From contig NC_092678.1 in assembly GCF_964355755.1 (NCBI RefSeq), positions 22,709,365-22,773,364 of the forward strand: a stretch of 64,000 bases of DNA. Direction: 5' to 3'. Positions 16,968 through 60,597 of the stretch are shown here, one piece after another. Position numbers and translations under genes: made by a program. The notes under the pieces are model-generated. The model ran no database searches, was not told the origin of the DNA, and saw only the letters and a list, made by a program, of their open reading frames with translations. Source of the DNA: Antedon mediterranea. Its lineage: Eukaryota > Animalia > Echinodermata. Each line of letters opens with the position of its first letter. Position 1 is the first letter of the stretch.

Positions 16968-17146
16968 ATCGCGAGACCATTCTCAGAAAATCATTGCGAG
17001 ACCATTCTTCTCCGCCAATCATCGCGAGACCATTCTCCGCCAATCATCGCGAGACCATTCTCGGCCGCCAATCATCGCGAGACCATTCTCCGCCAATCAT
17101 CGCGAGACCATTCACCGCCAATCATCGCGAGACCAGTCTCCGCCAT
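16968..17146. repeat. CpG-rich ~25-bp minisatellite TCGCGAGACCATTCTCCGCCAATCA (7 units)
   Basis: Direct tandem repeats with no unique spacers. Confidence 0.9.
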
Positions 17147-21800: not shown

Positions 21801-24183
21801 ATTTTACTCGGGGTACCCGAGTCTAGGACCCTCATTTTCTCTTCCATCCGACACTATTGAGTAAAAAGTGCGATTTATAAAGTACTACTCCTCCCTTATT
21901 CGTTGTAGTATCGATCTGGGTTTTGGCATGAATATACTACAGGGACATGTCATCAAAGGTATAGAGCCAAAATGTTTAATTAATATAATTAATACGCAGC
22001 CATATGACGTCTCGAAGATGGTACCATATAGCCGTATTTGGTAGCGAGGTTGTTGATGTGTATGTGACGTCACATCCCGTCTTATGACGTCATTACAACT
22101 TCTTTTGCTGTACCCCGAGTATCGCACATTCGTGTTTGTTTTTTAATTTGAAACTGGTGAACAGTCAACAACGTTAGAACAATAGAAACATAATAATAAT
22201 AATAATTATAGGCCTAACATAATAATTAATAAACATATTTAATAATAAACATAATTACCTTCTGTTAATATGTGGTCTGAAAATTTAGTCGCAAAAACGT
22301 GGAATAAGTATGATGAGAGTGTGACAGCTGAGATGACAACAACAATAAATGCAAAGACCATCGCTAAAGCTGTAAAAAAAAAAAACTTTACGGGTTATTT
22401 CAGGATAACTACATTGGATGTACGGTTTAAGTTCATTTTTGAGGATTTTTTATAGAAAAGAAAAATTAAATTAAATATGCTTTTGAATACATTGCTCTTC
22501 TTATTTTGATTTGTCGTAGGTCAATGTTACATTCTAAATTCATTAAAAGATTTAGATTTCCGGTTACCTGTAGGATAGAAACAAAATTACAATACTCCAA
22601 ATAAAAATAATCCGAACAACGTCATTAACCCAAATAACGTCATTTACTCATAACCAATGCTATTATTTTAGTGTCTGTTGTGACACCATAGATCATTCTC
22701 TATGACCGTTTTTTCCAAGATGATGAAGTGGTTATGAAAAATATCGACATTGGATTTATTTTGTAATGGTTTACGCCACCTACGGGTCAATATCATCATT
22801 ACATTATATGATAATGAATGGTGCATGTAGCTCACGTCACTGTATTGTGTTTCATACATCTATCACAGCATTACAGTATTTTATAATATCTGAATTTTCA
22901 ATCTCAGAAAATGGAGTCTCATGAAGCCCTTTTCCCTCTCTTGCACCCGTGCACCCCAATGTTTTGTATTCACTGGATTTTTTAATGATGTTACTGAATA
23001 GGCTAACCTCCATACCTGTAGAATTTGATATCCGTGTTGGTGTCGATGCTGAAGTCGATGTTTGAATAACTGTAGGCTGATAGGGTTTAGCTGATAGGTT
23101 CAAATGCACCGAGAAATACAAATAGAAATCAAAATATAATATAAGTTTTAAACTTAACCAACTAACTAAAAACAGGAACATTTTTAGATTATCAGAAATT
23201 GCTGTACATATGGTTTTATGCTTCTTACATGATGAAGATATCCAGTTATTCTTATGTTCTAGGCCTAAATTTAAATTTAAAATAAAATTCTAAAATAAGT
23301 TAAAATATTTTAACAATTGCAACCATACCCACTGCACCCTTCTGTCACTGGCTAGTCTGCTACATACCTGTGGGAACTACCATTGTTGTAGCTGAAGCCG
23401 GTATCAAGGTAGGCTGATAGAATGTTGCTGTAAGTTAGATTCATATGCACAAAAGAAATGAAGATATAAGTTTAAACTTCACCAAAATGTTACTAAAATT
23501 GAAATATACAGTATTTCCAGAAACTATAAAGACCCCATGAAAATCTTAAATAATTTAGTTTGAATTAATATCTTTGTTATTTTGAAATTATTATTTTCAA
23601 ATAAATGCCATGGCCTTTGATATAGTTTAGTTGTTTAGAGGAAATACGCTCAAGCCATCATTGATTTTGCATGATGTACTACACGGTAAATCCGTGATTA
23701 ATAATAAATATTATTATTTTCTAAAACAAATTTAATGAGCAAATAAAAAAGAATCTCAATCGAGATGTGGTAGGCATACCCAGTAGAATATGTTGTGCCG
23801 CATTGTTTAGTAGTTTTGCAAATATTTCAATTTGTTCTCGTGAATCCAAGTTTCCGGCTTTCTCAATGTGATATACAACATCCCAAATGTTGTCGTAGTT
23901 GAAGGCACTCAGCTTGTAGAAATCAATCACATTCCTTAAGTCATCTTTGTCTACGTTAATAAGCGTTGTAAACAGTGCTCTGCGGTAGTTGGTTATTATT
24001 GTCAGTTTTTGAGATAAATCGATTGCGAGTAAGAGTATTAAATAGGCCCATGGCTGACTGATCTAGACCGCCAATAGGTATAATACCACATAGAAGCATT
24101 CTTAACTTCCGAACGTCCACGCCAGCATAGGATTTGCTAAGTTTTTCCAGAAACATTTGGTATTTAACATCATTTTCGTCCAT
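18875..24183 (-). pseudogene. Copy 3: DED/TM/NACHT/LRR/TM NLR pseudogene
   Basis: Exons 24183-23780 (107-bp frameshifting deletion at ~24003 vs copy 2), 23427-23368, 23090-23016, 22567-~22549 (donor deleted), 22363-22259 (TM), 21721-18875 (deletion/frameshift at ~20295). Confidence 0.85.
21761..22140. mobile_element. Small non-autonomous element with asymmetric subterminal inverted repeats (Helentron/HINE-like or MITE) in the last intron of copy 3
   Basis: TACTCGGGGTAC at 21805-21816 is inverted at 22110-22121; AACAAA..TTTGTT ends; absent from the paralogous introns of copies 4-6. Confidence 0.55.
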
Positions 24184-26305
24184 TTTTAATCTGAAAACAA
24201 AAACCTATTAGTAAAAAACTCACAATATTAACACAATTTGGAACAATTTTCATACATTGTAGCCAGCTAAGGACAAGAACAATTGTTCAAATGTAAGCAA
24301 TTAATGTGTAGGCCTAACTTTCTAACTATGCATAGTCCCAAATGTTCAACACACTCTGACCTGAAGAATCTTTAGTTTAAACCACATTAGGCCTACTAAT
24401 TCAATATCAACATTACAGTTATTACCAACAATATAACTGACCTATTTCAATGTATTGGAAATAACAGCCTTATAAATTAAAATTCCAGTATTTCTTTCTT
24501 TTTTCCCATCATCTAATTTTTTTGCCGATTGAAGTTTGATCAGATGCCTCGTAAACTGATCGAAACGAACTATATAATACTATGTGTACTGATTTATACT
24601 TTACCAGTTGTTGTTTCTTTCTGATGAACAGTAACGGTAGGCGTATTCAAAATCGACAAGACAAGTTCCAAAATGGTTGCTGTACACTGAACCGTAACAT
24701 CTCAGGGTTGACTTTATCGTTTTTTTCATTTTAATATCTACTTGTTTTTTTGTCTGAAACGAAACGTTTTTCTGAGTCTTCTCCTAGTGTAGGCCTATGC
24801 CTACTGTTAAATCCAATTCAGAAGAGTTTGCAACAAAACTGATTTATTGAACCTGAACCTGTGTAGATCCTATTTTAATGCACTTGTCGTGCTAAATAAA
24901 TTGCCTAGGAATATAATGGCGACAACAAGTATTTTGAAGTATTGTATGTAGAGTATTGTATATTATTCAGTAATTATTCTATTTCACTGAAGCGTGTTTG
25001 AACGGGTCAACGTCACAATAACGAACTTTTGTGAAGAACGTGTTAATATTATACAGAAAGCGCCATATAAATATGACATTAGGGACTTTTAGATTTGAGT
25101 GAACGTGCACGACGTTCATGTCTACATGGGTCGTAGTCTACTGTTAAGTGGACATTACGTTGACGTGCCAGTGAACGTATAACGTAAAGACCTTGGGATC
25201 TTACTGCGTAACCTCTAGAATAGCTATTCCATCGCTGGTGGACGGGCTTATAGGTCAGGCTAAGTTTGTAGCTTGGCTTAGCCTAGATCCTTCATTTTCT
25301 GAACAAAGGTTGGCGTCCTAGTGATAAAACTCAAAACCTGTAGTATTTTTTTTAGTTTCTTGTGAGCTTTATTCAATCAATCATATTATTTTTTTAGTCA
25401 TAATAATGTGTAGTATTTGCAATTTTTTTTGTAAATATATTTGTAGCCTAGGCTATATAACAATAACACGTGAAGTAAAATATCGAGTCGTTAAAGAGAC
25501 AATAAGCAATAATCGTATATGAGGGTTTAAATGTTAAAAAACTGAACATTATAATAACATTTTAAAATATAAGACCAGAATAGTTTATTCATTTAGATAA
25601 AATCGAGAATGATAAATATTTTGTTCATGATACGTTGAGATTTTAGGTATTAAAATATTTGTTAAGGAGATTAGTATAAATTGTTTTTTTCAATAGACCT
25701 ATTTCTATTTTTCGGTGTTAAAATAAAATATTTATTATAATTATTAAAATTAGCTCTTTATTTAAAATAACCAATAAAAATCGATAAGTCACAGTTTGTA
25801 AATATAATTAATGTACTTTATTTACTACATTCTCAGAAAATCGCGAGACCATTCTCAGAAAATCATTGCGAGACCATTCTTCTCCGCCAATCATCGCGAG
25901 ACCATTCTCCGCCAATCATCGCGAGACCATTCTCGGCCGCCAATCATCGCGAGACCATTCTTCTCCGACAATCATCGCAAGACCATTCTCCGCCAATCAT
26001 CGCGAGACCATTCTCCGCCAATCATCGCGAGACCATTCACCGCCAATCATCGCGAGACCATTCTCCGCCATGATTCGTGGTAAACTTTTGCAGTGATATG
26101 ACGTCATACATCCACTCGTCAAAGAGCGAACGCGCCAAATGCCACGTGAACATGCCAGTCGCCTAGCGCGCGCGACCATATCATAAGAATGACGTCATAG
26201 TGTAACAGTCGGCACAGTGGACGTGCAAACAACTCCCGTATTAAATGAGGAACGTTGAAAAGACAATAAAAATAAGTCTACAATTACTATTACCGTATAG
26301 TATGT
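22250..26305. repeat. Recent segmental duplication, near-identical to ~54820-58963; 23310-27200 is also near-identical to ~14310-18320
   Basis: Long colinear identity, including introns and upstream DNA. Confidence 0.9.
25841..26070. repeat. 25-bp minisatellite, second copy (9 units)
   Basis: Same unit as 16968-17146. Confidence 0.9.
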
Positions 26306-31000: not shown

Positions 31001-32698
31001 TTTCTAATGACCGTTAGGTAGCGTCTATTAAAAAAAAATATTATAATAATAATTATAATATTATAATAATTACCTTCTGTTAATATGTGATCTGAAAATG
31101 TGTTCGCAAAAACTTGGAATAAGTATGAGAGTACGACGGCTAAGATGACAACAATAAATGCAAAGACCATCGCTAAAGTTAAAAACAAATTTAAGGTATA
31201 TTTCAGGATTACTAAGAGCATGCACGGTTTAAGTTCATTTGATGATTACTTTTTCTTTTTTTTTAAGTTATAGAAAAGAAAAATTAAATGAAAAGATGCT
31301 TTTGAATACATTCCTTCTTATTTTGATTTGTCGTAGGTCAATGTTACATTGTAAATTGATTAAAACACATTTTACGATATTCATTATGCTTACCGATACG
31401 TGTAGTTGGTTTAGATTTAGATTTCCGGTTACCTGTAGTATAGAAATAAAATATACGTAACAAAATTCAAATACAAATAGAACGTCATTTACTCATAACG
31501 GCATTTACTCATAATCAATAATATTATTTTAGTGTCTGTTTGACACCATAAATCATTCTCTATGACCAGTTGTTGGTGGAGTGGTTATGAAAAATACCGC
31601 CAATGATTTATTTTAAAGGTTTGCGCCACCTACAGGTCAATATCATCATTACTGGTAGGCCTACATGTTACTAACTCACGTTATATTTTTGTGTTTCATA
31701 CATCTATCACAGCGTTACAGTATTTTAGTTACATAATATCTGAATGTTTTTAATGGAATCTTATCAAGCCCCGCCCCTTCTCTTGCACCCGCAGTATTCA
31801 CTGGATTTGTTAATGATTTCTGTCACTATTATAGAGATTATATAGAATAGCGCCATACCTGTAGAAAATGATATAGGCGTTGGTGTCGATGCTGAAGCCC
31901 ATGTTTGAATAACTGTCAGCTGATAGGGTTTTGCTGAAACAAAAAGAAATCAAAATATAATAGAAGTTTAAACTTAACCAACTAACTAAAAACAGGAACA
32001 TTTTTAAATTATCTTAAATAAATTGCTGTTAACTCATTTGATGTTTTGCTTTTATATTTCAAATAAAATGCATACTATGTAGTTTAATCACCAAAGCAAA
32101 TACACTCAATTTGTAATTTGCAGCAATGTAATACCAATATTCAATACCTCCATGAGTTGGCCTTATTTCAAATGCTTTTGTTATGCATACCTAGTAGAAT
32201 ACGCTGTGTCTTTTTGTTCAGAAGTTTAGCAAATATTTCAATTTGTTGTTGTGAATCCAGTTTTCCGGCTTTCTCAATGTGATATACAGAATCCCATATG
32301 TTGTCATAGTTGAAGGCACTCAGTTTGTAGAATCCAGTCACTCTTTTCAAGTCGTCATTTCCAACGTTTTTAAGCGCTCTAAACAGTGCTCTGCGGTATT
32401 CTGTTAGTAGGCTTACTGTCTCTGTGCATTGAATAATGTTCTTGTATTCTGTTATACAATCTCTTGCTGAGGCCAGATTAGTTACTTCAGCTATGTCGGA
32501 CAACAGTTCCACATTGTTTTTAGAAATAATTCCATGTTCAGTAAGTTTGTTAAACAGTTCTAAGGCTATGTGTGATTGATCTAGATCTCCAATAGGTAGA
32601 ATACCATATAGAAGCATTCTTAACTCTCGGACTGTTACACCAGCATAGTTTTCGCTAAGGGTTTGCAAAAAGATTTGAAATTTTAGATTTTCATCCAT
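28083..32698 (-). pseudogene. Copy 4: DED/TM/NACHT/LRR/TM NLR pseudogene
   Basis: Exons 32698-32191, 31933-31859 (75), 31432-31394 (39), 31172-31074 (99; AMVFAFIVVILAVVLSYLF), 30929 onward. Walker A is altered to GNGGICKT; frameshifts at ~30043, ~28773 and ~28123. Confidence 0.85.
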
Positions 32699-33470: not shown

Positions 33471-35185
33471 ATTAGGTGATCATTTAGAATAAAATGATCA
33501 CCTATTGTTGTTGATACAATAACAATAATAGTATGAAATCTTTAATATTATTTATTTCTTTCTGTACAGATTTTGTTTGTCAATTATCTCAAAAAGTTTA
33601 ATGTCAATAATCACAACAATTTCACAATATCTTTAAAATAATTAAATTTAGTCCTAGTTAGCTTTTCAGCGTGATCACTTCTCTGTGACGTCATTTATAC
33701 GCCATTTTGTGAAATCACATTATCAATCATATCTCCATAATTTATTATCACATATTAATGACATTTACTACTGTAAACTTCAGGTCAAGGGTAAAAATAT
33801 TAGCTAATAAAACGCACGCGCACGTAGAGTCATGTGCGTAAAATCGCGCGTTAACATTTAAAAAGCTCAAAATTAAGTTTTTAGAGCATGAATTAGGCCA
33901 TTTGCGTGTTCTAATGTCTCTGACGTTTACAAAAAATAATATTTTACTAGCAAACGTATCATAGAAATGTGTTGCCCAGTTATAAGATATATATTGAAGT
34001 AAGGTTGTCTTACCAATTCCCCCATTTCCAGTTATCAATACTTTAGGTGAGTCTCTGGAATTTATAATAGCCAATAATTCTTGTAATGATGTGTGATTTC
34101 TTTTATATTCTTCCTCTCTTGTACTGATATATAGTTCTGGATCGGTAAACATCTTTGAAATATCATATTTAGTATCTGCTCTCCATGTAGGTGGTCTTAT
34201 ATTTGTTTTTTTAAATTTGTATTTCTGTTCCGTTGTCATGTATTCCCAAATAAGCTCATCTGAAATCAGTTTGATTTGGTTGTTATAAACTAAGTTGTAT
34301 TCAATGCAAATTCCTAATTATAAATAAACCTATAATAATGAATATACCACAGTTTCCTTTTGTTAAGATGTGGTCTGAAAATTTATTCGCAAAAGTGTGG
34401 AGTAAGAATATGAGAATTAAACTTCAGGTCAAGGGTAATAATATTAGCTAATAAAACGCACGCGCACGTAGAGTCATGTGCGTAAAATCGCGCGTTAACT
34501 TAAAAAGCTCAAAATTAAGTTTTTAGAGCATGAATTAGGCCATTTGCGTGTTCTAAAAAATTACTGCGCAAAAACACGTCTTTGCGCGCGCGATTCTTAG
34601 AAAGCGTAAAAAATAAAATTTGTACCATCCTTAGTACATTCACTGAATGTGAGTCCATTCGGACTTAAAATAGCGCTATACGAGGACGTTAAATATGGCA
34701 AAATGCGAAAATTGCATTTTATATATTTGTCAGGCATTTGTATGATTTGTTTTTATTTTTTTTATTTTTTTTTGAATGCGCATTGAGCACTCTTGAGTGG
34801 TATGTGCGCTATAAAAATCCTGTTATTATTATTATTATTATTAAAATTAATTTCACAAAGTGCTAAAAATTGTAAAAAATAAGGCATTTTTAAAATCAAA
34901 CTAACTCTTCAAAAGTTTCGTCGAAACTCGTTTTTTTAACTTATTCGGGAAGCCATTGAGTTGTAGATATGAATTAATGTACACATTTGACGTACACAAT
35001 TTTGTGACGTCATCAAATGGCCACTTGAATTTAAAAATTAGTAATTTTTATCTTTTTGTGTAGGTTATCACATTCAATAGAGCGCATCCCCGTTATTTGA
35101 GCCCGATTTTCGCTCAAATTTCAGTATGTGCTTGCTAAATTAATTATCTTTATCATGAGTTGCCACCATTTTCATTATGATGACA
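33471..35185. mobile_element. Helentron/HINE-like non-autonomous element (right end ill-defined) containing an NLR fragment and an L2-like 3' tail (~34735-34843)
   Basis: Begins at a T-rich site with the palindrome TAGGTGATCATTT..AAATGATCACCTA (33473-33504). Homology to the copy-1 upstream region (~4940) stops here. The body is CpG-rich like 61637-62394. Confidence 0.5.
33915..34417 (-). pseudogene. Isolated NLR fragment: end of TM exon, intron and NACHT N-terminus with Walker A
   Basis: DELIWEYMTTEQ..IRPPTW..MFTDPEL..GNGGIGKTTLLQY..VNVRDIR; flanked by direct repeats at 33774-33914 and 34418-34556. Confidence 0.85.
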
Positions 35186-36945: not shown

Positions 36946-39900
36946 CTAAAGATAAATAACATAAACAAGTTCTACCCATAAGAAAATATAAATGGCTAAA
37001 ATTGATAATAGAAAAAGTGAAATATATCCTCGTAATAATAGAAGAAAATAAGAAGATGTAGCTATAATTATTAAGTATATAGATATAAAAACTATAAGCC
37101 TATACAAAATATTTAAAAGACGAAATAAATGCTCTTTAAATATAGGTTTACATTTAGTTTCTATATACCAACTGTAATAGTTCAACTCTTCTATTTCTAA
37201 TGTTTTCTGATTCCATTCATCGTTTAAAACAAATGTGGGGATTAATGATGTACTGTAAATATTTGCAACGTCATTTCCATTGATAGATATCAGGTCACTT
37301 TTGATTATTATATTATTTTCATAACATTCACTTAGCATTTCATTAACAATAGTACCTGTTAAGTTACAATCACTCATAGAAAGACGGTATAAGTTTGGAA
37401 ATATAATCAATATATTAGCTAGTGTACTTCCGTTGATTGATGATAGGTCAATGCCATCCAAAATAAGATTATTCCATCTAAATCTATAACGACTAGGTGA
37501 TATTAAAAGATCGTGTAATTGTTTAGCTGACATATTATAATTACCCCAAGTTTGGCTTGGAGGGCCCAGCCGTGTGTCTAATAAATCGATAATGTTTCCA
37601 AGTAATTCGGTATCAATATCTGAAAGATCATTTCCTTTTAACTTGATAAGAGTTTCTTTTGACTTTAGATAGTTTATATCTACTTCATTAAACATGTCAA
37701 CTATTTGTTTGCTTGATAATTGAGAATTTGTCAAAGCGAAAGTTTCTAAATCTTTGGAAGTGTTCAATATACGACCTAACAGAGATCCATTTATAAACTC
37801 CGGATAGTCGGTCACGAGACTAAAACTCTTCAATTTAACAAAAGCTTTACTATGTTCACATTCTTCTAACATTGTGTTAATATGTGAACCACCTATATTA
37901 TATTCCATATAACGTATGTGGAGCTGTTTTAAATTTGGAAAGTTTTGAATTAATTTGCAAATCTGTGAGTCAATTGTAGTGTTATATTCGAAGCAACCAA
38001 TAAACCACCAAAACATGTCTACTTCCTCATCAAAACGGTATTTTTTCCATTCGTCTGAGAGGATTTTAAGAGCTTTATTTCCCCATTTATGAAGTAATTG
38101 TATCATACACCTGTTTCGATCTTGATACAAATATTGTAATAAGATTTCAACGTGTGCTACTAACCTACATACATTACCAGATGACTCAATGTTTGATTTT
38201 TCTATGATTGATAATATAGTTTCAGATATTACATTTCCCCCCATGTTTGTAAAGGCATATGCAAACAATTTCATTTGTTGGAATAAGTGAAAATCTTTTT
38301 TATATAGCATCTTTAAAGAATTTTTAAAATGTTCAACATCTATTTTCATTTCTGGTGACATTTGTTTATCCAATGATTTCACTACATTTTGTTCGTGCTC
38401 GCTATTTACATATTTAAAATATACTAAAAAAGAGTAATAATTTGATAGCCTATTTTCCAACCAGTGCTTCATTAATTTGTCTGCATTAGGACCTAGAAAA
38501 CTGATAGTGAAAACTCTTACCATGTGTAAATACTCGCTCGTTCTTATTTTTTTGCATTCCTCGAAATCTAACTTCTCAATATTATTTGACAAGTAAAGCC
38601 CGGCCAATGCCTCTGACAATAACTTATGTGGAAATTCGTACGTCTCCGTAAAATCATCCTGAACAGGAGGTGGATATTGTTGGTCAACAAATCCTATTTT
38701 CAGCGATAATTTAACTAAAGTTGTATTTCGTATAAGTTTATTCAATTGTTTATCTGTAAAAGTGAGTATATTTTGCTGTAAACCAATGTAACTAATATTT
38801 CCTAATAACAAAATTGAATTTTTGTATTCATCCGGAATGTCTTCAAAGTCTGCCGCTGGTTTAATAGTAGGATTATCACTTCTGTTAATGTACTGATTAA
38901 TAATCACACAAAAAATTTCTTTTAAAAATGTATGATAATCCTCAGGGATTACTTGTTTGTGTTCCCACACAACACACATTTTTAGTAACAAATACGGGAA
39001 TGGAAACATTTGTTCAAATATGTTTTTGTAGTCACCACCCCAATCAAATGTATTACCTGAATTAAGTTTAAGTAGGTTAATCAATGACTGACCTATTTCA
39101 TGCTTTCCAATGATTTCAAAGTATCTGAAAATAAAATGCTTTATGTTTTTTTCTGCAAATCCTTTTAAGTTTACAATTATATCATAATGTTTATGTAAAT
39201 TTGCTGTAAAACCCGGCCGTGAAGTTAGAATAACTGTGGTGTCCTCTAGTTCATCTCGTTTTAACATCTTTGGAATATCCACCCCGGATTGTAATTCATC
39301 TAATCCATCAATCAGAACAACTAATTCTCTATCGTATTTCTGAATAAAAGTGTGTATAGATGTTTTATTTACACAGGGATCTGTTTTTGCATTAACCTTA
39401 AAGTTATTAACGATTATATCTGTGATGTGTTGACCTGAATTGATGTCTCTTATGTTTACGAGAAATAATATTTTACCAGCAAACGTGGTATCGTTATTTG
39501 TCGCCCAGTTATAACATATATATCGAAGTAATGCTGTCTTACCAATTCCTCCTATCCCTACCATTAATACTTTACATGGATTTCTGGCTTTTATCTGATC
39601 TAATAATTCTTCAAGTGATGTAAAAGTATCTTCTTCCTCTTTTTTAATATATAGGTTTGGATCGGTAAACATCTTTGAAATATCATACTCTTTATCTGCA
39701 CTCCATGTAGGTGGTCTTATATTTGGATTTTTTAATTTCTTTTTTTGTTCTGCTGTTATGAAGTCTCGAATATGCTCATCTGCAATGAGTTCAATTAACA
39801 AAAAGAGATAGATTGTTTTAGTATTATCTCTAAAAATATATGAAATCAGTAATCAATTATATAGACGTATGGCAGCGTCCAAATTATAGAAATAATCCTA

Positions 39901-41505
39901 ATTACCTTCTGACAATTTGTGGTCTGAAAATTTGTTTGCAAAAACATTGAATGAGTATGAGGTTATGACAGCCAAGATGACAACAATAAATGCAAAGACC
40001 ATCCACGCTATAAAGAAAAAAAAACATTACAATTTATTTCTTGCCTTTATTTATTTATTTATTATACATGTGTTGACTAAAGTGCCCAGTTTAGTTATTT
40101 GTTTTTTTGTTTTTATTTGTTTTGAGAATAAGACTTAATTCATAATTGGGAATAGATGTTGTAATTGTTAATACTTACCGTTACGTCGATTTAATTTAGA
40201 TTTGAATGTGCTGTTAGATCGAGGTGACACTGTAGGTTAGAAACAAATTAAATAATCTTCAAAAAGTCCATTTAACACAACTACTAATAGTTGACTCTTA
40301 ATTTATTGTGAATGATTTGTCATTTTAACCCATTTTTTGCTGTACAGTTTTTTCAGGGAAATAATTTTTGGTCAAAGTGAATAGCTATTATGTAACATTA
40401 AAATAGCATATTAAATAACAAAAAAAAATTTTTTTCAGGGTACAATATATCTTTAATAATACCTACATAATATATCAATCCTCAATTCTTTATGTATTAA
40501 TGATTGGTACAATATTGTAACCATTTCCATTGCATCCTAACCCCTCTCTGCATTTGTTAGTTATAATTCATTCAGTCACTGGCTAGTCTGGTACATACCT
40601 GTGGGAACTACCATTGTTGTAGCTGAAGCCGATATCAATGTAGGCTGATAAGGTGTTACTGTAAACGTAGATTCATATGCACAAAAAAAATAAGATATAA
40701 GTTTAAACTTCACCAAAATGTTACTAAAATTGAAATATACAGTATTTCCAGAAACTACAAAGACCCCATAAAAATCTTAAATAATTTAGTTTGAATGAAT
40801 ATCTTTGTTATTTTGAAATTATTATTTTCAAATAAATACCATGGCCTTTGATATAGTTTAGTTAGAGGAAATACGCTCAAGCCATCATTGATTTTGCATG
40901 ATGTAATACACGGTAAATCCGTGTTTAATAATCAATATTGTATTGTTTTCTATTTAATGAGCAAATAAAAAAGAAGCTCTCAATCGAGATGTGGTAGGCA
41001 TACCTAGTAGAATATATTGTGCCACATTGTTCAGTAGTTTTGCAAATGTTTCAATTTCTTGTTGTGAATTTAGTTTTCCGTCTTTTTCAATGTGATATAC
41101 AACATCCCAAATGTTGTCGTATTTGAAGGCACTCAGTTGATAGAAATCAATCACAGACCTTAAGTCATCTTTGTCTACGTTAATAAGCGTTGTAAACAGT
41201 GCTCTGCGGTAGTTGGTTATTATTGTCTCTGATGTGTTATTACTGCATTGTACAGTATTCTTGTATTCTGTTATACAATTTATCGCTGATTCCTGATTAG
41301 TTACTTCAGCAATCTCCAACAACAGCCTCACATCAGTTTTTGAGATAAATCGATAGCGAGTAAGAGTATTAAATAGGCCCATGGCTGACTGATCTAGACC
41401 GCCAATAGGTATAATACCACATAGAAGCATTCTTAACTTCCGAACTTCAGTGCCAGCATAGTGTTTGCTAAGGTTTTGTAGAAACATTTGGTATTTATCG
41501 TCCAT
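36946..41505 (-). CDS. Copy 5: intact membrane-associated NLR, DED-DED/linker/TM/NACHT/LRR/TM-TM, 1182 aa
   Basis: Exons 41505-41004 (502), 40658-40599 (60), 40229-40179 (51), 40007-39906 (102), 39779-36946 (2834); total 3549 nt, open. Walker A GIGGIGKT, Walker B LVVLIDGLDEL, sensor-1-like VILTSRP, winged-helix YEFPHKLLSEALAGLYL, LRRs such as FPNLYRLSMSDCNL. Confidence 0.9.
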
Positions 41506-49652: not shown

Positions 49653-52600
49653 CTAATGATAAATAAGTTCTACCCATAAGAAAATATAAATGGTTAAAAT
49701 CAATAATTGAAAAAGCGAAATGTATCTTTGTGAGATTAGAAGAAAATAAGTAGATGTAGCTATAATTATTAAATATATTAAAACTATAGGCCTATACAAA
49801 ATATTTAAAAGACGAAATAAATGCGCTTTAAATATAGGTTTACATTTAGTTTCATATACCAACTGTAATAGTTCAACTCTTCTATTTCTTTTTTTTTTCT
49901 CTTTCGTGGGGGTCACCCACATTTATTCATTCCTTTTACAAATATATATTATATAACATACATACATTTTTATAAAATAAAGAACAATAAAATTCAATAT
50001 AACAGCTAAAAAGGCACTATATCTATACATGTACATAAAATCGATGGAGTAAAAGTATGCTTTAAAAACGTACATTTTATGTTTATTGCAAGTTATAGTA
50101 AAAGTACGACTATTTATCATTTAAATTTACTTTATATTAAGAAATGTATTAAAAAGTAGCTGTTTCTTTTATTATATCTTAAATCAGTACTCACAATTTT
50201 CTTTATTTCTTTTGACCTTATATTACATCCATTACAAATATATACACACATACACACATTAATATACCTATTTACATTTACGAATCAGTTTAATATAGTT
50301 ATTATAAACACATTATATGCTACTTTTTATGTTTTGGCCTTGTATAACATTTGTTTCATTCCACTATTTGTATTCCTTTAAAGTTCTTTTCTTACTATGT
50401 TGGCCCTTTACATTTACCAGTTTGTTTACTTATATGTTTGACCGTGTGTTTCAGTCTATGTTTTACCCTAATACATTTATTTCTATCATGTATTAGTTTT
50501 AGTATAAGTCTAGGTGTTTGTTAGTTTTACACTACAGCTTGTACTAGTTTTATATTTTTCTTATTTTATGAATTCTAATAATTTAATTTTAACATCATTC
50601 CATTTTATAACTGCTTTATACTGATTACATGCGTATTCATTTTCTATAAGCTTTTTTAATTCAAACTTAAACATATTCAAGATACTTTTTGATTCGTTAC
50701 CCATCATGTTATCTAATAAACTAAGCCTTATGCGGGATTTGTATATACAAAACGTAAAGATAGATGTTAGCTCATTTACAAGTTTATCTTTGGAACCAGT
50801 AACTATATCAAACCAATGTATTGGCGTTTCATTAGGAAAACATTCAACAATAAGAATATTGAATTTCCTCCAAACTGGCTTAATCACTTTACACTTAAGT
50901 AACATATGTTCTTCGTTTTCTATCACATTCTTACATCTATCACAAATATTAGTTTTAGACAATTTCCAAATATGTAATCTTTTATTACAAACAAGTATGC
51001 GATGTAAAAGTTTAAAATTGAATTGCGCAACTTTTACCATATGTTTCATATCTTTGACTTTATTATTCCATATTTTGTTCCATACCATAGTCTTACCGGT
51101 ATTTAAAAACTCTGCTTCCCATTTTACTTGGGAGATTGGCACTGTCTTTAGTTCAAATATAAACTTATCATAAAAACCTGTTTTAACATTTGATTTGAAT
51201 AATTCATTTTTAATATCAACATTAACTTGTTCTTTCTCTAATCTATGTCGTGCCAATACTTCCTTCCATTCAATAGGAATAGCATGCATGAGCTTGAAGT
51301 ATTCTATTATCCCATTATGCTTTACTAATAACGTGGGAATTAAATCTCTAAGACTTACAATTGTGTTATTGACCAAAATGTCACCAATTGTTTTATAGCC
51401 CGACTTTAACCAATCTTTGAAGTATAAAGACTTTCCGTCTGACAGTATATGTTTATTTTCCCACAAGGTTTGAGATTTAATTTCCTGTACATTTTGAGGA
51501 TCTAACATTTCAATATTATTTATTTTCACAATTGCATTAATCATATTTAAATAAAATTCAGGCATAATTTGTAATTGTTTATGCTCTTCAAAATTAAGCT
51601 TACTTATCTCTAATGTACATTCTATAGGGTATATGTAATATTTTGGAATACATTTCCACTTGCCTGGGTCTGGGCTAAGTAGTCTCTTAACCCAGTTTAG
51701 CTTTAACGAGATCACAACTACATAAAAATCAATCATATTAACCCCTCCTTCTTCTATTTTATTTATAAGTGTTTTCCTCTTAATCTTTTCTTTTTTATTT
51801 CCCCATAGGAATCTATACAGTAACTTCTCTACCATTGGAAATACATGTTTTGGTACATTGATAATACTAGCATTGTATATTAATTTTGAAATTGCTAGAC
51901 TTTTATTTATTATCATTTTTCCAAAGAAGGTAAGGTGTCGTTTTTCCCATAGCCTTAAAGTATGTTCTAACTCCATAATTTTATCATCCCAGTTTTTTTT
52001 CTTCACAAACACCTTTTTTATAGCCTACATAAATTCCGAGGAATTTCACTGGCTCTTTCGTCCAAGTGATACCACAAGGGGTTGCTAGGTTATTCTGAAT
52101 TGATCCAATCCAGATTCCTTTACATTTTCCTTTATTTAGCTTTAACTCTTCTATTTCTAATGTTTTGCGATTCCCTTCAATTCCTAAAACAAATGTTGGG
52201 ATTAATGATGTACTGTCAATCTTCGTAAGGTCATTTCCATGGATAGATATCAGGTCACTTTTGATTATTATACTATTTTCATAACATTCACTTAGCATGT
52301 CATTTACAATAGTACCTGTTAAATTACAATTATTCATAGAAAGATGTGTTAAGTTTGGAAATGTAATCAATATATTAGCTAGTGTACTTCCGTTGATTGA
52401 TGATAGGTCAATGCCATCCAAAATTAGAATATCCAATCTAATCTATAACGACTAGGTGATATTAAAAGATCGTGTAATTGTTTCGCTGACATATAATACC
52501 TGTCCCAAGTATCATACAGTTTGTATAATGTCTAATTTTTTCTTTACTTCGGTATCAATATATGAAAGATCAATTCCTTCTAAATTGATAAAAATGTCTG

Positions 52601-55600
52601 ATGATGTTAGATAGTTTATATCTAGTTCATTAAACATGTCACCTATTTGTTTGCTTGATAATTGAGAATTCGCCACATTGAAAGTTTCTAAATCTTTGGA
52701 AGTGTTTAATATACGACCTAATAGAGATCCATTGATAAACTCCGGATATTTGGTCTCGAGACTAAAACTCTTCAATTTAACAAAAGCTTTACTATGTTCA
52801 CATTCTTCTAACATTGTGTTAATATGTGAACCACTTATATTATATTCCATATAACGTATGTGGAGCTCTTTTAAATTTGGAAAATTTTGAATTAATTTGC
52901 AAATCTGTGAGTCAATTGTAGTGTTATATTCGAAGGAATCAATAGTCCACCAAAAATTATGTACTTCCTCACCAAAACGATATTTTTTCCATTCGTCTGA
53001 GAGGATTTTAAGAGCTTTATCACCCCATTTATGAAGTAATTGTATCATACACCTACTGTTTCGACTTTGATCCAGATATCGTAATAAGATATGAACGTGT
53101 GCTACTAACCTACATACTTTACCAGATGACTCAATGTTTGATTCTTCTATGATTGATAATATAGTTTTAAATATTACCCGCTTGTTTGTAAAATCTGCAA
53201 ACAATTTCATTTGTTGGAATAAGTGCAAATCTTTTTCATATAGCAACTTAAAAGAATTTTTAAAATTGTCAACATGCATTTTCATTTCTGATGACATATG
53301 TTTATCCAATGACTTCACTACATTTTGTTCGTGCTCTTGATTTACATATTTAAAATATTCTAAAAAAGAGTAATAATTTGAGAGCCTGTTTACCAACCAG
53401 TGTTTCATTAATTTATCTGCATTAGGACCTAGAAAACTAATAGTGAAAACTCTTGCCATGTGTAAATATTCGCTCGTCCTTAAGTTCTCGCATTCCTCAG
53501 ATGTTAAAGTATCAATTTTGTTAGACAAGTAAAACCCGGCTAGCGCTTGTGACCATAACTTATGTGGACATCTGTAAGTCTCTACTGAATCATCCTGAAC
53601 AGTAGGGTCATCTTTGTAAATAAATCCTAATTTCAACGATAAGTCAACCAAAGTTTCATTTCTTACTAATTCAAGTAATTGTATTTTAGTAAAATGAAGT
53701 TTATTTGTTTGTAAACCAATGTAACTTATTTTTCCTAATATTAAAATTGCATTTTTATAGTCAGTTGAAATGTTGTCAAAGTTAGATATCCGTTTTTGCT
53801 CATTACTTCTGTTAATGTACTGATTTAAAATGGAACGGAAGATTTCTTTCAAAAAACGTTGAAAATCTTTTGTAATTATTTGTTCGTGTTGCCATATAAC
53901 ACACATTTTAAGTAATAAAAATGGGGATGAAAACAGTTCAAATACATTTTTGTGATCACCACCCCAATTATTTTTCACTGAATCAAGTTTGAATTCGTTA
54001 ATCAATAACTGGCCCAGATTAGAGTTGTTTACAAAATTGAAATGTCTATTTATATATGGTTTTATGTTTTCTGTAGAGAATCCTTCTACTTTTACATATA
54101 CATCAAAATGCCTACGTACACTTTCAGTAAAACCCGGTCGTGAAGTCAGAATAACTGTGCTGTCTTCCAATTCTTCTCTTTTTAGTATCAGTTGAATATC
54201 TACCCCAGATGTTAACTCATCTAATCCATCTATCAGAAGAACTAAATCTTTGTCGTATGTCTCTACAAAAGTTCTTATAATAGTTTCATTTACATAGATA
54301 CCTGTTTTTTTACGAGATTTCTTCAGCTTAACTGAATCAACAATTAAATCTGTGATTGTTTGTCCTTCTTTGATGTCTCTGAGGTTTACAAGAAATAATA
54401 TTTTACCAGCAAACGTACTATCGTTATTTTTCGCCCAGTTATAAGATAAATATTGAAGCAAGGTTGTCTTACCAATTCCACCATTTCCTACCATTAATAC
54501 TTTACAGGAGTCTTTAGACTTTATAATATCCAATAATTCTTGTAATGATGCGTCGACTTTTCTTTTTTCTATATGTAGTACTGGATCTGTGAACATCTGT
54601 GAAATGTCATACGGATGATTTTCTCCCCATGTTGGTGGTATTATATTTGGATCTTCGAATTTTTTTCTCTGTTCTGCTGTTATGAAGTTTCGAATAAGCT
54701 GATCTGAAATGAAGACAATCTATGAAAGTATAAACCGAACAGGCTTTTTTTTTTGCAAATTTCAACGTTAGGTAGCGGCTATTAAATACTAATTTCATAA
54801 TAGAAAATTAATAATAAACATTACCTTCTGTTAATTCGCAATCTGAAAACCTGTTTGCAAAAACGTGGAATAAGTATGAGAGTATGACAGCTGAGATGAC
54901 AACAATAAATGCAAAGACCATCGCTAAAGCTAAAACAAATGTAAGGTATATTTCAGGATTACTGAAGGGCATGCACGGTTTAAGTTCATTTGATGATTAC
55001 TTTTTTTATTAAGTTATAGAAAAGATGCTTTTGAATACATTGCTTCTTATTTTGATTTGTGGTAGGTCAATGTTACATTGTGAATTTATTTTACGATATT
55101 ATTTATGCTTACCGATATGTGTACTTGGTTTAGATTTAGATTTCCTGTTACCTGTAGGTTAGAAATAAAATTACAATACGTAACAAAATTCAAATCCCAA
55201 TAAACGTCATTAACCCATGACGTCATTTACCCAAATAACGTCATTTACTCATAACCAATACTATTATTTTTGTGTCTGTTGTGACACCATAGATCATTCT
55301 CTATGACTCTTTTTTCCAAGATGATGGAGTGGTTATGAAAAATATCGCAATTGGATTTATGTTATAATGGTTTGCGCCACCTACGGGTCAATATCATCAT
55401 TACATTATATGATAATGAATGGTGCATGAGTAGCTCACGTTGTATTGTGTTTCATACATCTATCACAGTCTTACAGTATTTGTAGTTACATAATATTTGA
55501 ATGTTCAATCCTTTTTCCCTCTCTTGTTTAGTATTCACTGGATTTGATAATGATGTTACTGGATAGGCTAAGCTCCATACCTGTAGAAATTGATATCGGT

Positions 55601-56822: not shown

Positions 56823-58498
56823 TTTTAATCTGAAAACAAAAACCTATTAGTAAAAAACTCACAATATTAACACAATTTGGAACAATTTTCATACATTGTA
56901 GCCAGCTAAGGACAAGAAAAATTGTTCAAATGTAAGCAATTAATGTGTAGGCCTAACTTTCTAACTATGCATAGTCCCAAATGTTCAACACACTCTGACC
57001 TGAAGAATCTTTAGTTTAAACTACATTATGCCTACTAATTCAATATCAACATTACAGTTATTACCAACAATATAACTGACCTATTTCAATGTATTGGAAA
57101 TAACAGCCTTATAAATTAAAATTCCATTTTTTTTCAATATTCATCAACAGTATTTCTTTCTTTTTTCCCATTATCTCAATTTTTTGCCGATTGAAGTTTG
57201 ATCAGATGCCTCGTAAACTGATCGAAGAACTATATAATACTAGGCCTATATGTACTGATTTATACTTTACCAGTTGTTGTTTCTTTCTGATGAACAGTAA
57301 CGGTAGGCGTATTCAAAATCGACAAGACAAGTTCCAAAATGGTTGCTGTACACTGAACCGTAACATCTCAGGGTTGACTTTATCGTTTTTTCATGTTTTT
57401 TTGTCTGAAACGAAACGTTTTTCTGAGTCTTCTCCTAGTGTAGGCCTATGCCTACTGTTAAATCCAATTCAGAAGAGTTTGCAACAAAACTGATTTATTG
57501 AACCTGAACCTGTGTAGATCCTATTTTAATGCACTTGTCGTGCTAAATAAATTGCCTAGGAATATAATGGCGACAACAAGTATTTTGAAGTATTGTATGT
57601 AGAGTATTGTATATTATTCAGTAATTATTCTATTTCACTGAAGCGTGTTTGAACGGGTCAACGTCACAATAACGAACTTTTGTGAAGAACGTGTTAACAT
57701 TATACAGAAAGCGCCATATAAATATGACATTAAGGACTTTTAGATTTGAGTGAACGTGCACGACGTTCATGTCTACATGGGTCGTAGTCTACTGTTAAGT
57801 GGACATTACGTTGACGTGCCAGTGAACGTATAACGTAAAGACCTTGGGATCTTACTGCGTAACCTCTAGAATAGCTATTCCATCGCTGGTGGACGGGCTT
57901 ATTAGGTCAGGCTAAGTTTGTAGCTTGGCTTAGCCTAGATCCTTCATTTTCTGAACAAAGGTTGGCGTCCTAGTGATAAAACTCAAAACCTGTAGTATTT
58001 TTTTTTAGTTTCTTGTGAGCTTTATTCAATCAATCATATTATTTTTTTAGTCATAATAATGTGTAGTATTATATTTGCAATTTTTTTTGTAAATATATTT
58101 GTAGCCTAGGCTATATAACAATAACACGTGAAGTAAAATATCGAGTCGTTAAAGAGACAATAAGCAATAATCGTATATGAGGGTTTAAATGTTAAAAAAC
58201 TGAACATTATAATAACATTTTAAATTATAAGACCAGAATAGTTTATTCATTTAGATAAAATCGAGAATGATAAATATTTTGTTCATGATACGTTGAGATT
58301 TTAGGTATTAAAATATTTGTTAAGGAGATTAGTATAAATTGTTTTTTTCAATAGACCTATTTCTATTTTTCGGTGTTAAAATAAAATGTTTATTATAATT
58401 ATTAAAATTAGCTCTTTATTTAAAATAACCAATAAAAATCGATAAGTCACAGTTTGTAAATATAATTAATGTACTTTATTTACTACATTCTCAGAAAA

Positions 58499-58728
58499 TC
58501 GCGAGACCATTCTCAGAAAATCACTGCGAGACCATTCTTCTCCGCCAATCATCGCGAGACCATTCTCCGCCAATCATCGCAAGACCATTCTCGGCCGCCA
58601 ATCATCGCGAGACCATTCTTCTCCGCCAATCATCGCAAGACGATTCTCCGCCAATCATCGCGAAACCATTGTCCGCCAATCATCGCGAGACCATTCACCG
58701 CCAATCATCGCGAGACCATTCTCCGCCA
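58499..58728. repeat. 25-bp minisatellite, third copy (9 units)
   Basis: Same unit as 16968-17146. Confidence 0.9.
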
Positions 58729-58962: not shown

Positions 58963-60597
58963 TACCACTGTAGGCCCATACTACTGTAGGCCTATACCAC
59001 TGTAGGCCTATTATCCAATATAGGCCCATACTACTGTAGGCCTATACCACTGTAGGCCTATTATCCAATATAGGCCCATACTACTGTAGGCCTATACCAC
59101 TGTAGGCCTATTATCCAATATAGGCCTATACTACTGTAGGCCTATACAACTGTAGGCCTATACCACTGTAGGCCTATACTACTGTAGGCCTATACCACTG
59201 TAGGCCTATACTACTGTAGGCCTATACCACTGTAGGCCTATTATCCAATATAGGCCCATACTACTGTAGGCCTATACCACTGTAGGCCTATTATCCAATA
59301 TAGGCCCATACTACTGTAGGCCTATACAACTGTAGGCCTATTATCCAATATAGGCCCATACCACTGTAGGCCTATACCACTGTAGGCCTATACCACTGTA
59401 GGCCTATACCACTGTAGGCCTATTATCCAATATAGGCCCATACTACTGTAGGCCTATACAACTGTAGGCCTATTATCCAATATAGGCCCATACCACTGTA
59501 GGCCTATACCACTGTAGGCCTATACCACTGTAGGCCTATACCACTATAGGCCTATTATCCACTATAGGCCCATACTACTGTAGGCCTATACCACTGTAGG
59601 CCTATTATCCAATATAGGCCTATACTACTGTAGGCCTATACAACTGTAGGCCTATTATCCAATATAGGCCTATACCACTGTAGGCCTATACCACTGTAGG
59701 CCTATTATCCAATATAGGCCCATACTACTGTAGGCCTATACCACTGTAGGCCTATTATCCAATATAGGCCTATACTACTGTAGGCCTATACAACTGTAGG
59801 CCTATTATCCAATATAGGCCTATACCACTGTAGGCCTATACCACTGTAGGCCTATTATCCAATATAGGCCCATGCTACTGTAGGCCTATACCACTGTAGG
59901 CCTATTATCCAATATAGGCCCATACTACTGTAGGCCTATACAACTGTAGGCCTATTATCCAATATAGGCCCATACTACTGTAGGCCTATTATCCAATATA
60001 GGCCCATACTACTGTAGGCCTATTATCCAATATAGGCCCATACTACTGTAGGCCTATACCACTGTAGGCCTATTATCCAATATAGGCCCATACTACTGTA
60101 GGCCTATACCACTCTGTAGGCCTATTATCCAATATAGGCCCATACTACTGTAGGCCTATACCACTGTAGGCCTATTATCCAATATAGGCCCATACTACTG
60201 TAGGCCTATACCACTGTAGGCCTATTATCCAATATAGGCCCATACTACTGTAGGCCTATACCACTCTGTAGGCCTATTATCCAATATAGGCCCATACTAC
60301 TGTAGGCCTATACTACTGTAGGCCTATTATCCAATATAGGCCCATACTACTGTAGGCCTATACCACTGTAGGCCTATACCACTGTAGGCCTATACCACTG
60401 TAGGCCTATACTACTGTAGGCCTATACCACTGTAGGCCTATTATCCACTATAGGCCCATACTACTGTAGGCCTATACCACTGTAGGCCTATTATCCAATA
60501 TAGGCCCATACTACTGTAGGCCTATACAACTGTAGGCCTATTATCCAATATAGGCCCATACTACTGTAGGCCTATACCACTGTAGGCCTATTATCCA
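58963..60597. repeat. TAGGCCTA-based satellite, 16-18-bp monomers with a frequent 50-bp trimer
   Basis: Monomers TAGGCCTATACCACTG, TAGGCCTATTATCCAATA and TAGGCCCATACTACTG. Confidence 0.95.

Follow-up and report, generated by a model that had tools for sequence, protein, structure and literature searches.

A predicted transmembrane helix between the tandem DED and the NACHT-LRR module in a branch of feather-star NLRs

NLR signalling is understood as an effector and a nucleotide switch that assemble in one compartment. Soluble NLRs of the DED-NACHT(-LRR) type are described from sea urchin, amphioxus, and Nematostella (PMC2575513). Membrane-associated NLRs have also been reported. AjNLR-new of Apostichopus japonicus was presented as the first membrane NLR with an extracellular NACHT; its order is transmembrane helix (TM)-Ig-Ig-TM-NACHT, with no death-fold effector, its topology was derived from TMHMM and cell-binding assays and places the Ig domains inside, and it was linked to phagocytosis (PMC13133943). 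AjNLRC4 and holothurian Ig-TM-NACHT receptors have an Ig ectodomain and a cytosolic NACHT, with neither DED nor LRR (PMC8699970). In anthozoan TM-NLRs, three to five N-terminal helices replace the effector, and no death fold is described across the membrane from NACHT (PMC3879445, PMC5094078). Membrane NLR candidates are known from sponges (PMC12909245). In sea urchins, there are NLRs with 2A-like signal sequences, and these leaders were shown to direct reporters to the secretory pathway (PMC4981915). Crinoid immunity has been described as largely unstudied (PMC13673367). Here, we describe an NLR gene array, with copies numbered 1 to 6, in a 64,000-nucleotide stretch of the feather star Antedon mediterranea (the window; contig NC_092678.1, positions 22,709,365 to 22,773,364 of the forward strand, assembly GCF_964355755.1). 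Our focus is the intact copy 5, whose product is predicted to carry a helix between its death-fold effector and its NACHT-LRR module.

The copy 5 product shares its domain set, domain order, and NACHT family with the soluble DED-NACHT(-LRR) NLRs (PMC2575513) and with helix-less crinoid relatives; those proteins have no helix between effector and NACHT and contain about twice the cysteine. Like AjNLR-new (PMC13133943), it is an echinoderm NACHT protein with transmembrane helices, in its case predicted ones; it differs from AjNLR-new by a tandem DED before one helix and by a full LRR region. As in AjNLRC4 and the holothurian receptors (PMC8699970), one helix lies directly before NACHT and another after, whereas tandem DEDs rather than Ig domains precede the helix; the holothurian receptor P0023 scored just 56 bits against the crinoid profile. 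The anthozoan TM-NLRs offer a parallel as a single-origin NLR branch with gained membrane helices (PMC3879445, PMC5094078), except that copy 5 has one helix after a DED pair and not three to five at the N terminus. A sea-urchin 2A-like leader would move a whole NLR including its effector, whereas the crinoid membrane would separate effector from sensor (PMC4981915). None of the known membrane NLRs compared is described as having a single helix that separates a death-fold effector from NACHT-LRR. Among the results listed, a literature search turned up no work about NLRs of crinoids or about the order death fold, helix, NACHT, LRR; supplements and subscription papers (e.g., the 2006 sea-urchin immune repertoire) were outside its scope, and an earlier mention may exist.

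Death receptors such as Fas and TNFR1, which act with FADD and caspase-8, connect an outer sensor through one helix to an inner death-fold module. By analogy, copy 5 would most likely work like a death receptor. The likeness is one of logic only: the tandem DED resembles that of caspase-8 itself, the predicted type II orientation is opposite to that of death receptors, and the sensor is a STAND ATPase. Pfam and sequence inspection found no signal peptide, cysteine-rich ectodomain, or death domain in copy 5, which falls outside the TNFR family.

Copy 5 consists of five exons with AG/GT ends throughout. All introns are in phase 1, and the exons join into a product of 1,182 amino acids (aa) with a single terminal stop:

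41004 to 41505, minus strand: exon 1, with the start codon and the tandem DED (aa 1 to 167), from Pfam, AlphaFold2 (AF2), and Foldseek
40599 to 40658, minus strand: exon 2, 60-nt linker rich in Ser, Thr, and Pro (S/T/P), AG/GT ends, phase 1-1, with a counterpart in copies 2, 3, and 6
40179 to 40229, minus strand: exon 3, 51-nt basic mini-exon directly before the helix; basic mini-exons are also present in copies 1, 4, and 6
39906 to 40007, minus strand: exon 4, 102 nt, predicted signal-anchor helix (uncharged 26 aa, aa 204 to 231) and acidic tail, from hydropathy and charge
36946 to 39779, minus strand: exon 5, NACHT module, LRRs, C-terminal helices, and stop; open for 943 aa
39115 to 39570, minus strand: NACHT domain (Pfam NACHT, E = 3.3e-17), with Walker A at 39558-39535
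37225 to 38040, minus strand: LRR region (limits approximate), from the alternation of strand and helix in the AF2 model
36952 to 37146, minus strand: two C-terminal hydrophobic helices (aa 1117 to 1152 and 1159 to 1181) with a short Arg-bearing loop, Kyte-Doolittle scores (KD19) of 2.43 and 2.44

The protein order is tandem DED, S/T/P linker, basic mini-exon, hydrophobic exon, NACHT, LRR, and two hydrophobic C-terminal helices. An earlier note, made from this DNA alone, had predicted the same splice product including exon 40007-39906, had quoted its hydrophobic peptide with a basic run before and an acidic run after it, and had noted the two helices at the C terminus, the lack of a signal peptide, and intact Walker motifs. 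Each of these points held: the peptide and both charged runs are present, the N terminus is DED helix 1, and Walker A and B are kept.

By its domains (NACHT, intact motifs, LRRs, and N-terminal death-fold effector), copy 5 is an NLR. It belongs to a large DED-NACHT-LRR family whose looked-up close members all come from A. mediterranea or Anneissia japonica; we compared it with eight named RefSeq relatives (P0001, P0002, P0003, P0004, P0005, P0007, P0008, and P0017). The DED match in Pfam lies under the gathering score (E = 3.6e-6), and AF2 models the region with a predicted local distance difference test (pLDDT) score of 93. Its best Foldseek matches are caspase-8 and caspase-8/cFLIP (TM-scores of 0.72 to 0.75), led by the caspase-8 tandem DED 4zbw (E = 1.6e-4; TM-score of 0.72). 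Exon 5 (pLDDT 75.5) matches NOD2 best (E = 1.6e-18), followed by NLRC4. Within NACHT, Walker B, the sensor-1 Arg, the GxP Pro, and the winged-helix His are all intact. Pfam detects the LRRs weakly in copy 5 and as LRR_4 in P0004 (E = 3e-10). The C-terminal helices have a low pLDDT of 34 to 57 in the AF2 model, and tails related to them end copies 3, 4, and 6 and P0017 and P0001. A glycosylphosphatidylinositol anchor was considered for this end of copy 5; a second hydrophobic helix precedes the last one.

Topology was judged by hydropathy and charge counts. The exon 4 helix has a KD19 of 2.29, and orthologous helices are found in P0017 and P0001. The charge difference, C side minus N side, was negative in 15/15 helices (range, -1 to -8; copy 5, -7; copies 2 and 3 were counted without upstream context). 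Copy 5 combines the features of a type II signal-anchor, namely, no signal peptide, an internal helix, and a more positive N side. P0007 carries two EGF repeats (E = 1e-12) between helix and NACHT, without a second helix; EGF is a disulphide module of oxidising compartments. In P0003 and P0005, an FN3-like domain occupies the same place. The models XP_033105221 and XP_071959453 contain the exon joins for EGF and FN3. The cysteine content of the NACHT module was 1.05% in 11 helix-bearing rows of our alignment (0.5 to 1.5%) versus 2.25% in 42 helix-less rows (1.3 to 3.0%), and 1.7 to 2.7% in the 14 closest helix-less rows. Several conserved NACHT-module cysteines are replaced in the helix-bearing branch, and the region after the module is also poorer in cysteine. 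Such a loss would be expected if this part of the protein had come to face an oxidising lumen. The NACHT modules of the helix-bearing rows contain 22 N-x-T sites against 16.7 expected, and those of the helix-less rows 36 against 43.9. Two of these sites retain N and T around a variable x:

39361 to 39369, minus strand: N-x-T site N376, in 7/11 helix-bearing versus 0/42 helix-less NACHT modules
38719 to 38727, minus strand: N-x-T site N590, in 8/11 helix-bearing versus 1/42 helix-less NACHT modules

The charge bias, the EGF repeats of one relative, the cysteine loss, and the new N-x-T sites all point to the N-in/C-out orientation that had been predicted from the first reading of the DNA, and we infer that copy 5 quite probably crosses the membrane in this way. 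Two related claims fared less well. Anchoring of the NACHT-LRR loop at both ends fits copy 5 and three of the eight named relatives but not the other five, which lack C-terminal helices. Sequons in the LRRs had also been taken as a luminal sign; we rejected them as evidence of position, since they are part of the repeat consensus and are commoner in the LRR region of helix-less relatives (2.25 versus 1.33 per 100 aa).

A helix precedes NACHT in 9/9 close proteins (copy 5 and the eight named models, from two genera), whereas 0/8 more distant relatives have a hydrophobic peak there. P0017 (XP_071959994.1; 1,212 aa) reproduces the whole architecture of copy 5. C-terminal helices were seen in copy 5, P0017, P0001, and P0004 (a single one) and were absent from P0002, P0003, P0005, P0007, and P0008. 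In quick NACHT trees, the 11 helix-bearing rows formed one branch with Shimodaira-Hasegawa-like approximate likelihood ratio test values of 86 (59 rows) and 83 (34 rows), at which a single branch is neither shown nor rejected; the Antedon sub-branch had a support of 100 and the Anneissia pair one of 97. Support of 83 to 86 for the whole and of 97 to 100 for its halves would fit one or two origins of the helix. Linker KD exceeded 1.06 in 0/44 other rows, six of which start at NACHT and are uninformative. Among the rows compared, the predicted helix is restricted to this branch of the family. Its sequence varies widely from one sub-branch to another; its position and its hydrophobicity are what stays constant. 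In the best 150 of 8,536 profile matches, just one protein from outside the crinoid branch had a helix ahead of NACHT, an amphioxus protein with four helices and no DED; two weak matches of another search (an Ig-type and a GTPase-type protein) also had such a helix. The ESM Atlas gave no match for residues 1 to 600 of P0003 and only generic NACHT leads under 0.9 for residues 1 to 480 of P0017.

Some relatives vary the layout. Two helix-less proteins, P0013 and P0031, have an OTU-like protease domain between DED and NACHT (by Pfam in P0013; by a similar linker in P0031), and this slot appears to hold cytosolic enzymes in helix-less genes and EGF or FN3 domains in helix-bearing ones. In Anneissia, P0066 (XP_033099151.1) has nothing but LRRs after a short basic tail and a single helix. 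This protein of the same LRR type has a plain type II layout, which speaks for the N-in/C-out orientation; its LRRs are closest to those of helix-less relatives, and it is possibly a separate outward move of this LRR type. The crinoid tandem-DED proteins P0117 and P0070 appear, by eye, to be fused to a Roc-type GTPase; the C terminus of P0117 is a strongly hydrophobic tail after the DED pair.

The helix exon itself stands out from the surrounding DNA. On the minus strand, 6 of 72 exon-like segments were hydrophobic; each of the six has a consensus donor and is a helix exon of copies 3 to 6, counting alternative acceptors. The plus strand gave 9 hydrophobic segments out of 52, none with a consensus donor. 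The confinement of hydrophobic minus-strand exons with consensus donors to copies 3 to 6 is more than chance would give. Between copies, the exon is 79 to 89% identical, compared with 50 to 61% for the 100 nt downstream and 50 to 85% upstream. Nonsynonymous divergence was lower than synonymous divergence (dN < dS) in 6/6 pairs, over about 21 synonymous sites. Contigs from three sequencing runs of one sample cross introns uninterrupted. Those of a fourth run, presumed to be RNA, cover intronic repeats and, among the matches listed, have no joint at the modelled introns, which is uninformative on splicing. A short high-copy repeat element lies at 40362-40456, within intron 2 of copy 5, where contig depth is very high.

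We lean towards reading copy 5 as a type II membrane receptor with a cytosolic tandem DED and an exoplasmic NACHT-LRR, which would cluster its DEDs for recruitment of the caspase-8 type; this seems to us somewhat better than an even prospect. The helix would act as an internal signal-anchor and leave the DEDs in the cytosol, and the NACHT-LRR would enter the lumen of the endoplasmic reticulum (ER) and then likely reach the cell surface or a vesicle lumen. If known NLR behaviour is a guide, ligand- and nucleotide-driven oligomerisation of NACHT would cluster the DEDs, which, as with known tandem DEDs, would likely recruit a caspase-8-type enzyme. The C-terminal helices of copy 5 could add a second anchor as a hairpin, a feature not general to the group. 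With NACHT there, the intact nucleotide motifs would imply a need for nucleotide outside the cytosol. The ER lumen contains ATP and is home to AAA+ ATPases such as torsin, so that these motifs are compatible with an exoplasmic NACHT.

A bolder version is tentative and in our view rather doubtful. Here, a feather-star NLR turned inside out would serve as a cell-surface death receptor, its NACHT-LRR glycosylated and loaded with nucleotide in the ER and then exposed outside the cell. Microbial ligand and ATP released by damage would build an extracellular wheel that nucleates a caspase-8 DED filament inside, and swappable phase 1 exons (FN3, EGF, and stalks) would diversify the ectodomain.

If the type II reading is true, a STAND ATPase is able to work as an ectodomain, with effector and intact switch on opposite sides of the membrane, and extracellular ATP or luminal ligands could be tested directly as NLR triggers. 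With helix-less sister genes as controls, the crinoid family would make a cleaner case than the one published claim of an extracellular NACHT.

Several observations weigh against the type II reading. The charge bias is -1 or -2 in 8 of the 15 helices, and the upstream side is net acidic in P0017 and P0001. The EGF case comes from one gene model, possibly a chimera, and the FN3-like domain is of ambiguous origin, as it matches titin, which is cytosolic, as well as NCAM. Sites N376 and N590 are missing from both Anneissia rows and so mark the Antedon half only; the rows also share ancestry, so that p-values for these counts overstate the difference. In the model, both sites fall at the beginning of a helix, a position that favours Asn in any case, and helix capping is an alternative cause. 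The stretch before the C-terminal helices of copy 5 carries a net basic charge, contrary to what a luminal side would lead one to expect. Walker A and B, the sensor-1 Arg, and the GxP Pro are kept in 11/11 helix-bearing rows and the His in 10/11, as in cytosolic kin. Exon 4 is symmetric (a multiple of three, phase 1-1), so that it could be skipped in frame, and its inclusion in the transcript is predicted. No protein identical to copy 5 was among the matches of the database searches, and four of the five NACHT-bearing copies are broken as assembled, by real breaks or assembly errors. In copy 1, a DED-only gene, the exon in the helix slot sits between two DED pairs.

The alternative that survives best, although unlikely, is a membrane-tethered NLR that is wholly cytosolic, with the helix as a re-entrant or surface anchor and an inflammasome-like wheel forming on the membrane. 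DED and NACHT-LRR are both cytosolic folds, and the retained nucleotide-binding motifs, the DED pairs on both sides of the copy 1 exon, and the basic residues ahead of the C-terminal helices all fit such a tether. It accounts poorly for uncharged runs of 19 to 32 aa (20 aa in P0005) without a central Pro or Gly hinge, for the EGF repeats after the helix of P0007, and for a cysteine loss C-terminal to the helix.

Slightly less likely still is an exoplasmic protein that does not signal. It might be a decoy or a sensor that is shed or cleaved, or it might store tandem DEDs at the membrane, where they act as a cFLIP-like brake or are freed by intramembrane proteolysis. The tandem DED fold matches cFLIP and vFLIP as well as caspase-8, the C-terminal half of the helix is polar, flexible linkers of 38 and 15 residues may uncouple the two sides, and many relatives end early. 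A decoy would have no need of the NACHT motif set and LRRs, which are under purifying selection (dN/dS of about 0.5 over 400 codons).

We regard it as improbable that exon 4 is a cassette exon or that the locus is barely expressed, in which case copy 5 would yield a soluble DED-NACHT-LRR NLR or be decaying in a birth-and-death array. The symmetry of exon 4, the broken neighbours, and the missing database match would all suit this explanation. It conflicts with the inclusion of the helix in 8/8 named branch models, with dN < dS and the conservation of the exon above that of the introns, and with the identical RefSeq model of copy 1, which uses the same micro-exon chain; a soluble product is also hard to square with the cysteine and sequon shifts.

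A folded N-terminal domain of 167 aa resists N-terminal translocation, which we counted against a reverse orientation, with DEDs and an S/T/P-rich stalk outside and a cytosolic NACHT-LRR, as in type I sea-cucumber Ig-TM-NACHT receptors. This last alternative is very improbable: ATP would stay on the NACHT side, as it does for the cytosolic NACHT of AjNLRC4 (PMC8699970), and the linker is 42% S/T/P in copy 5, but that figure is only 16 to 19% in P0003 and P0017, a signal peptide is absent, the charges are opposite in 15/15 helices, and the EGF repeats of P0007 would be cytosolic.

The array as a whole lies on the minus strand of AT-rich animal DNA and comprises five tandem-DED and NACHT-LRR genes together with a DED-only gene and a fragment. 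Of the five NACHT-bearing copies, copy 5 alone is intact; copies 2, 3, 4, and 6 carry stops or frameshifts in the big exon:

54825 to 54929, minus strand: helix exon of copy 6 (99 or 105 nt), from the hydrophobic-exon scan
about 56822 to 49659, minus strand: copy 6, whose big exon reaches a stop after 729 aa; a retroelement interrupts the copy
31074 to 31172, minus strand: helix exon of copy 4 (99 nt); this copy extends over about 32698-28025, and its big exon is frameshifted
22259 to 22369, minus strand: helix exon of copy 3 (105 or 111 nt); this copy extends over about 24183-18875, and its DED exon and big exon are frameshifted
12922 to 13008, minus strand: copy 2 divergent hydrophobic exon, 87 nt, with a weak acceptor; this copy extends over about 15314-9756, and its big exon stays open for 595 aa before an in-frame stop
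33750 to 34423, minus strand: gene fragment, helix-exon tail and NACHT-exon start, from the exon scan

The earlier note had assigned a helix exon to every copy. This is clear for copies 3 to 6, with exons of 99 to 111 nt, but not for copy 2, with its weak acceptor and a hydrophobic core shorter than in copies 3 to 6, nor for copy 1, whose exon is weak and contains prolines. In copy 2, the hydrophobic stretch runs upstream past the usable acceptor (13008-13050, minus strand), up to a pyrimidine tract and a non-AG dinucleotide, which suggests that the original acceptor may have been lost. Between its DED and helix exons, after a plausible acceptor, lies a 12-bp tandem repeat (13517-13961; 37 copies), whose phase 1 frame reads as a Pro/Ala/Gln-rich linker; no clear donor was seen downstream.

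Copy 1 had been counted as an NLR copy, which does not hold: it has no NACHT and carries a second DED pair and a stop instead.

1166 to 3930, minus strand: copy 1, seven exons, tandem DED, weak hydrophobic exon (1918-1814), and tandem DED, without NACHT, from RefSeq identity

Its product is identical over 445/445 aa to A. mediterranea RefSeq XP_071960776.1. The 105-nt exon is weakly hydrophobic with two prolines and is followed by the second DED pair and the stop. The RefSeq model uses the basic mini-exons of copy 1, and the match of the whole micro-exon chain means that an independent annotation uses such exons. One possibility is that the product acts as a soluble adaptor for the receptors next to it or as a brake on them; DED-only proteins resembling it were among the search matches (P0087, P0089, P0100, and P0167).

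In the 3' part of copy 6, a retroelement fragment (zf-RVT, E = 5.5e-7) at 50561-52024 on the minus strand parts the LRRs from the C-terminal helices. The window also holds a 25/53-bp minisatellite element in three copies (16968-17145, 25840-26070, and 58498-58728) and, at 58963-60591, a 16-bp satellite of 98 copies.

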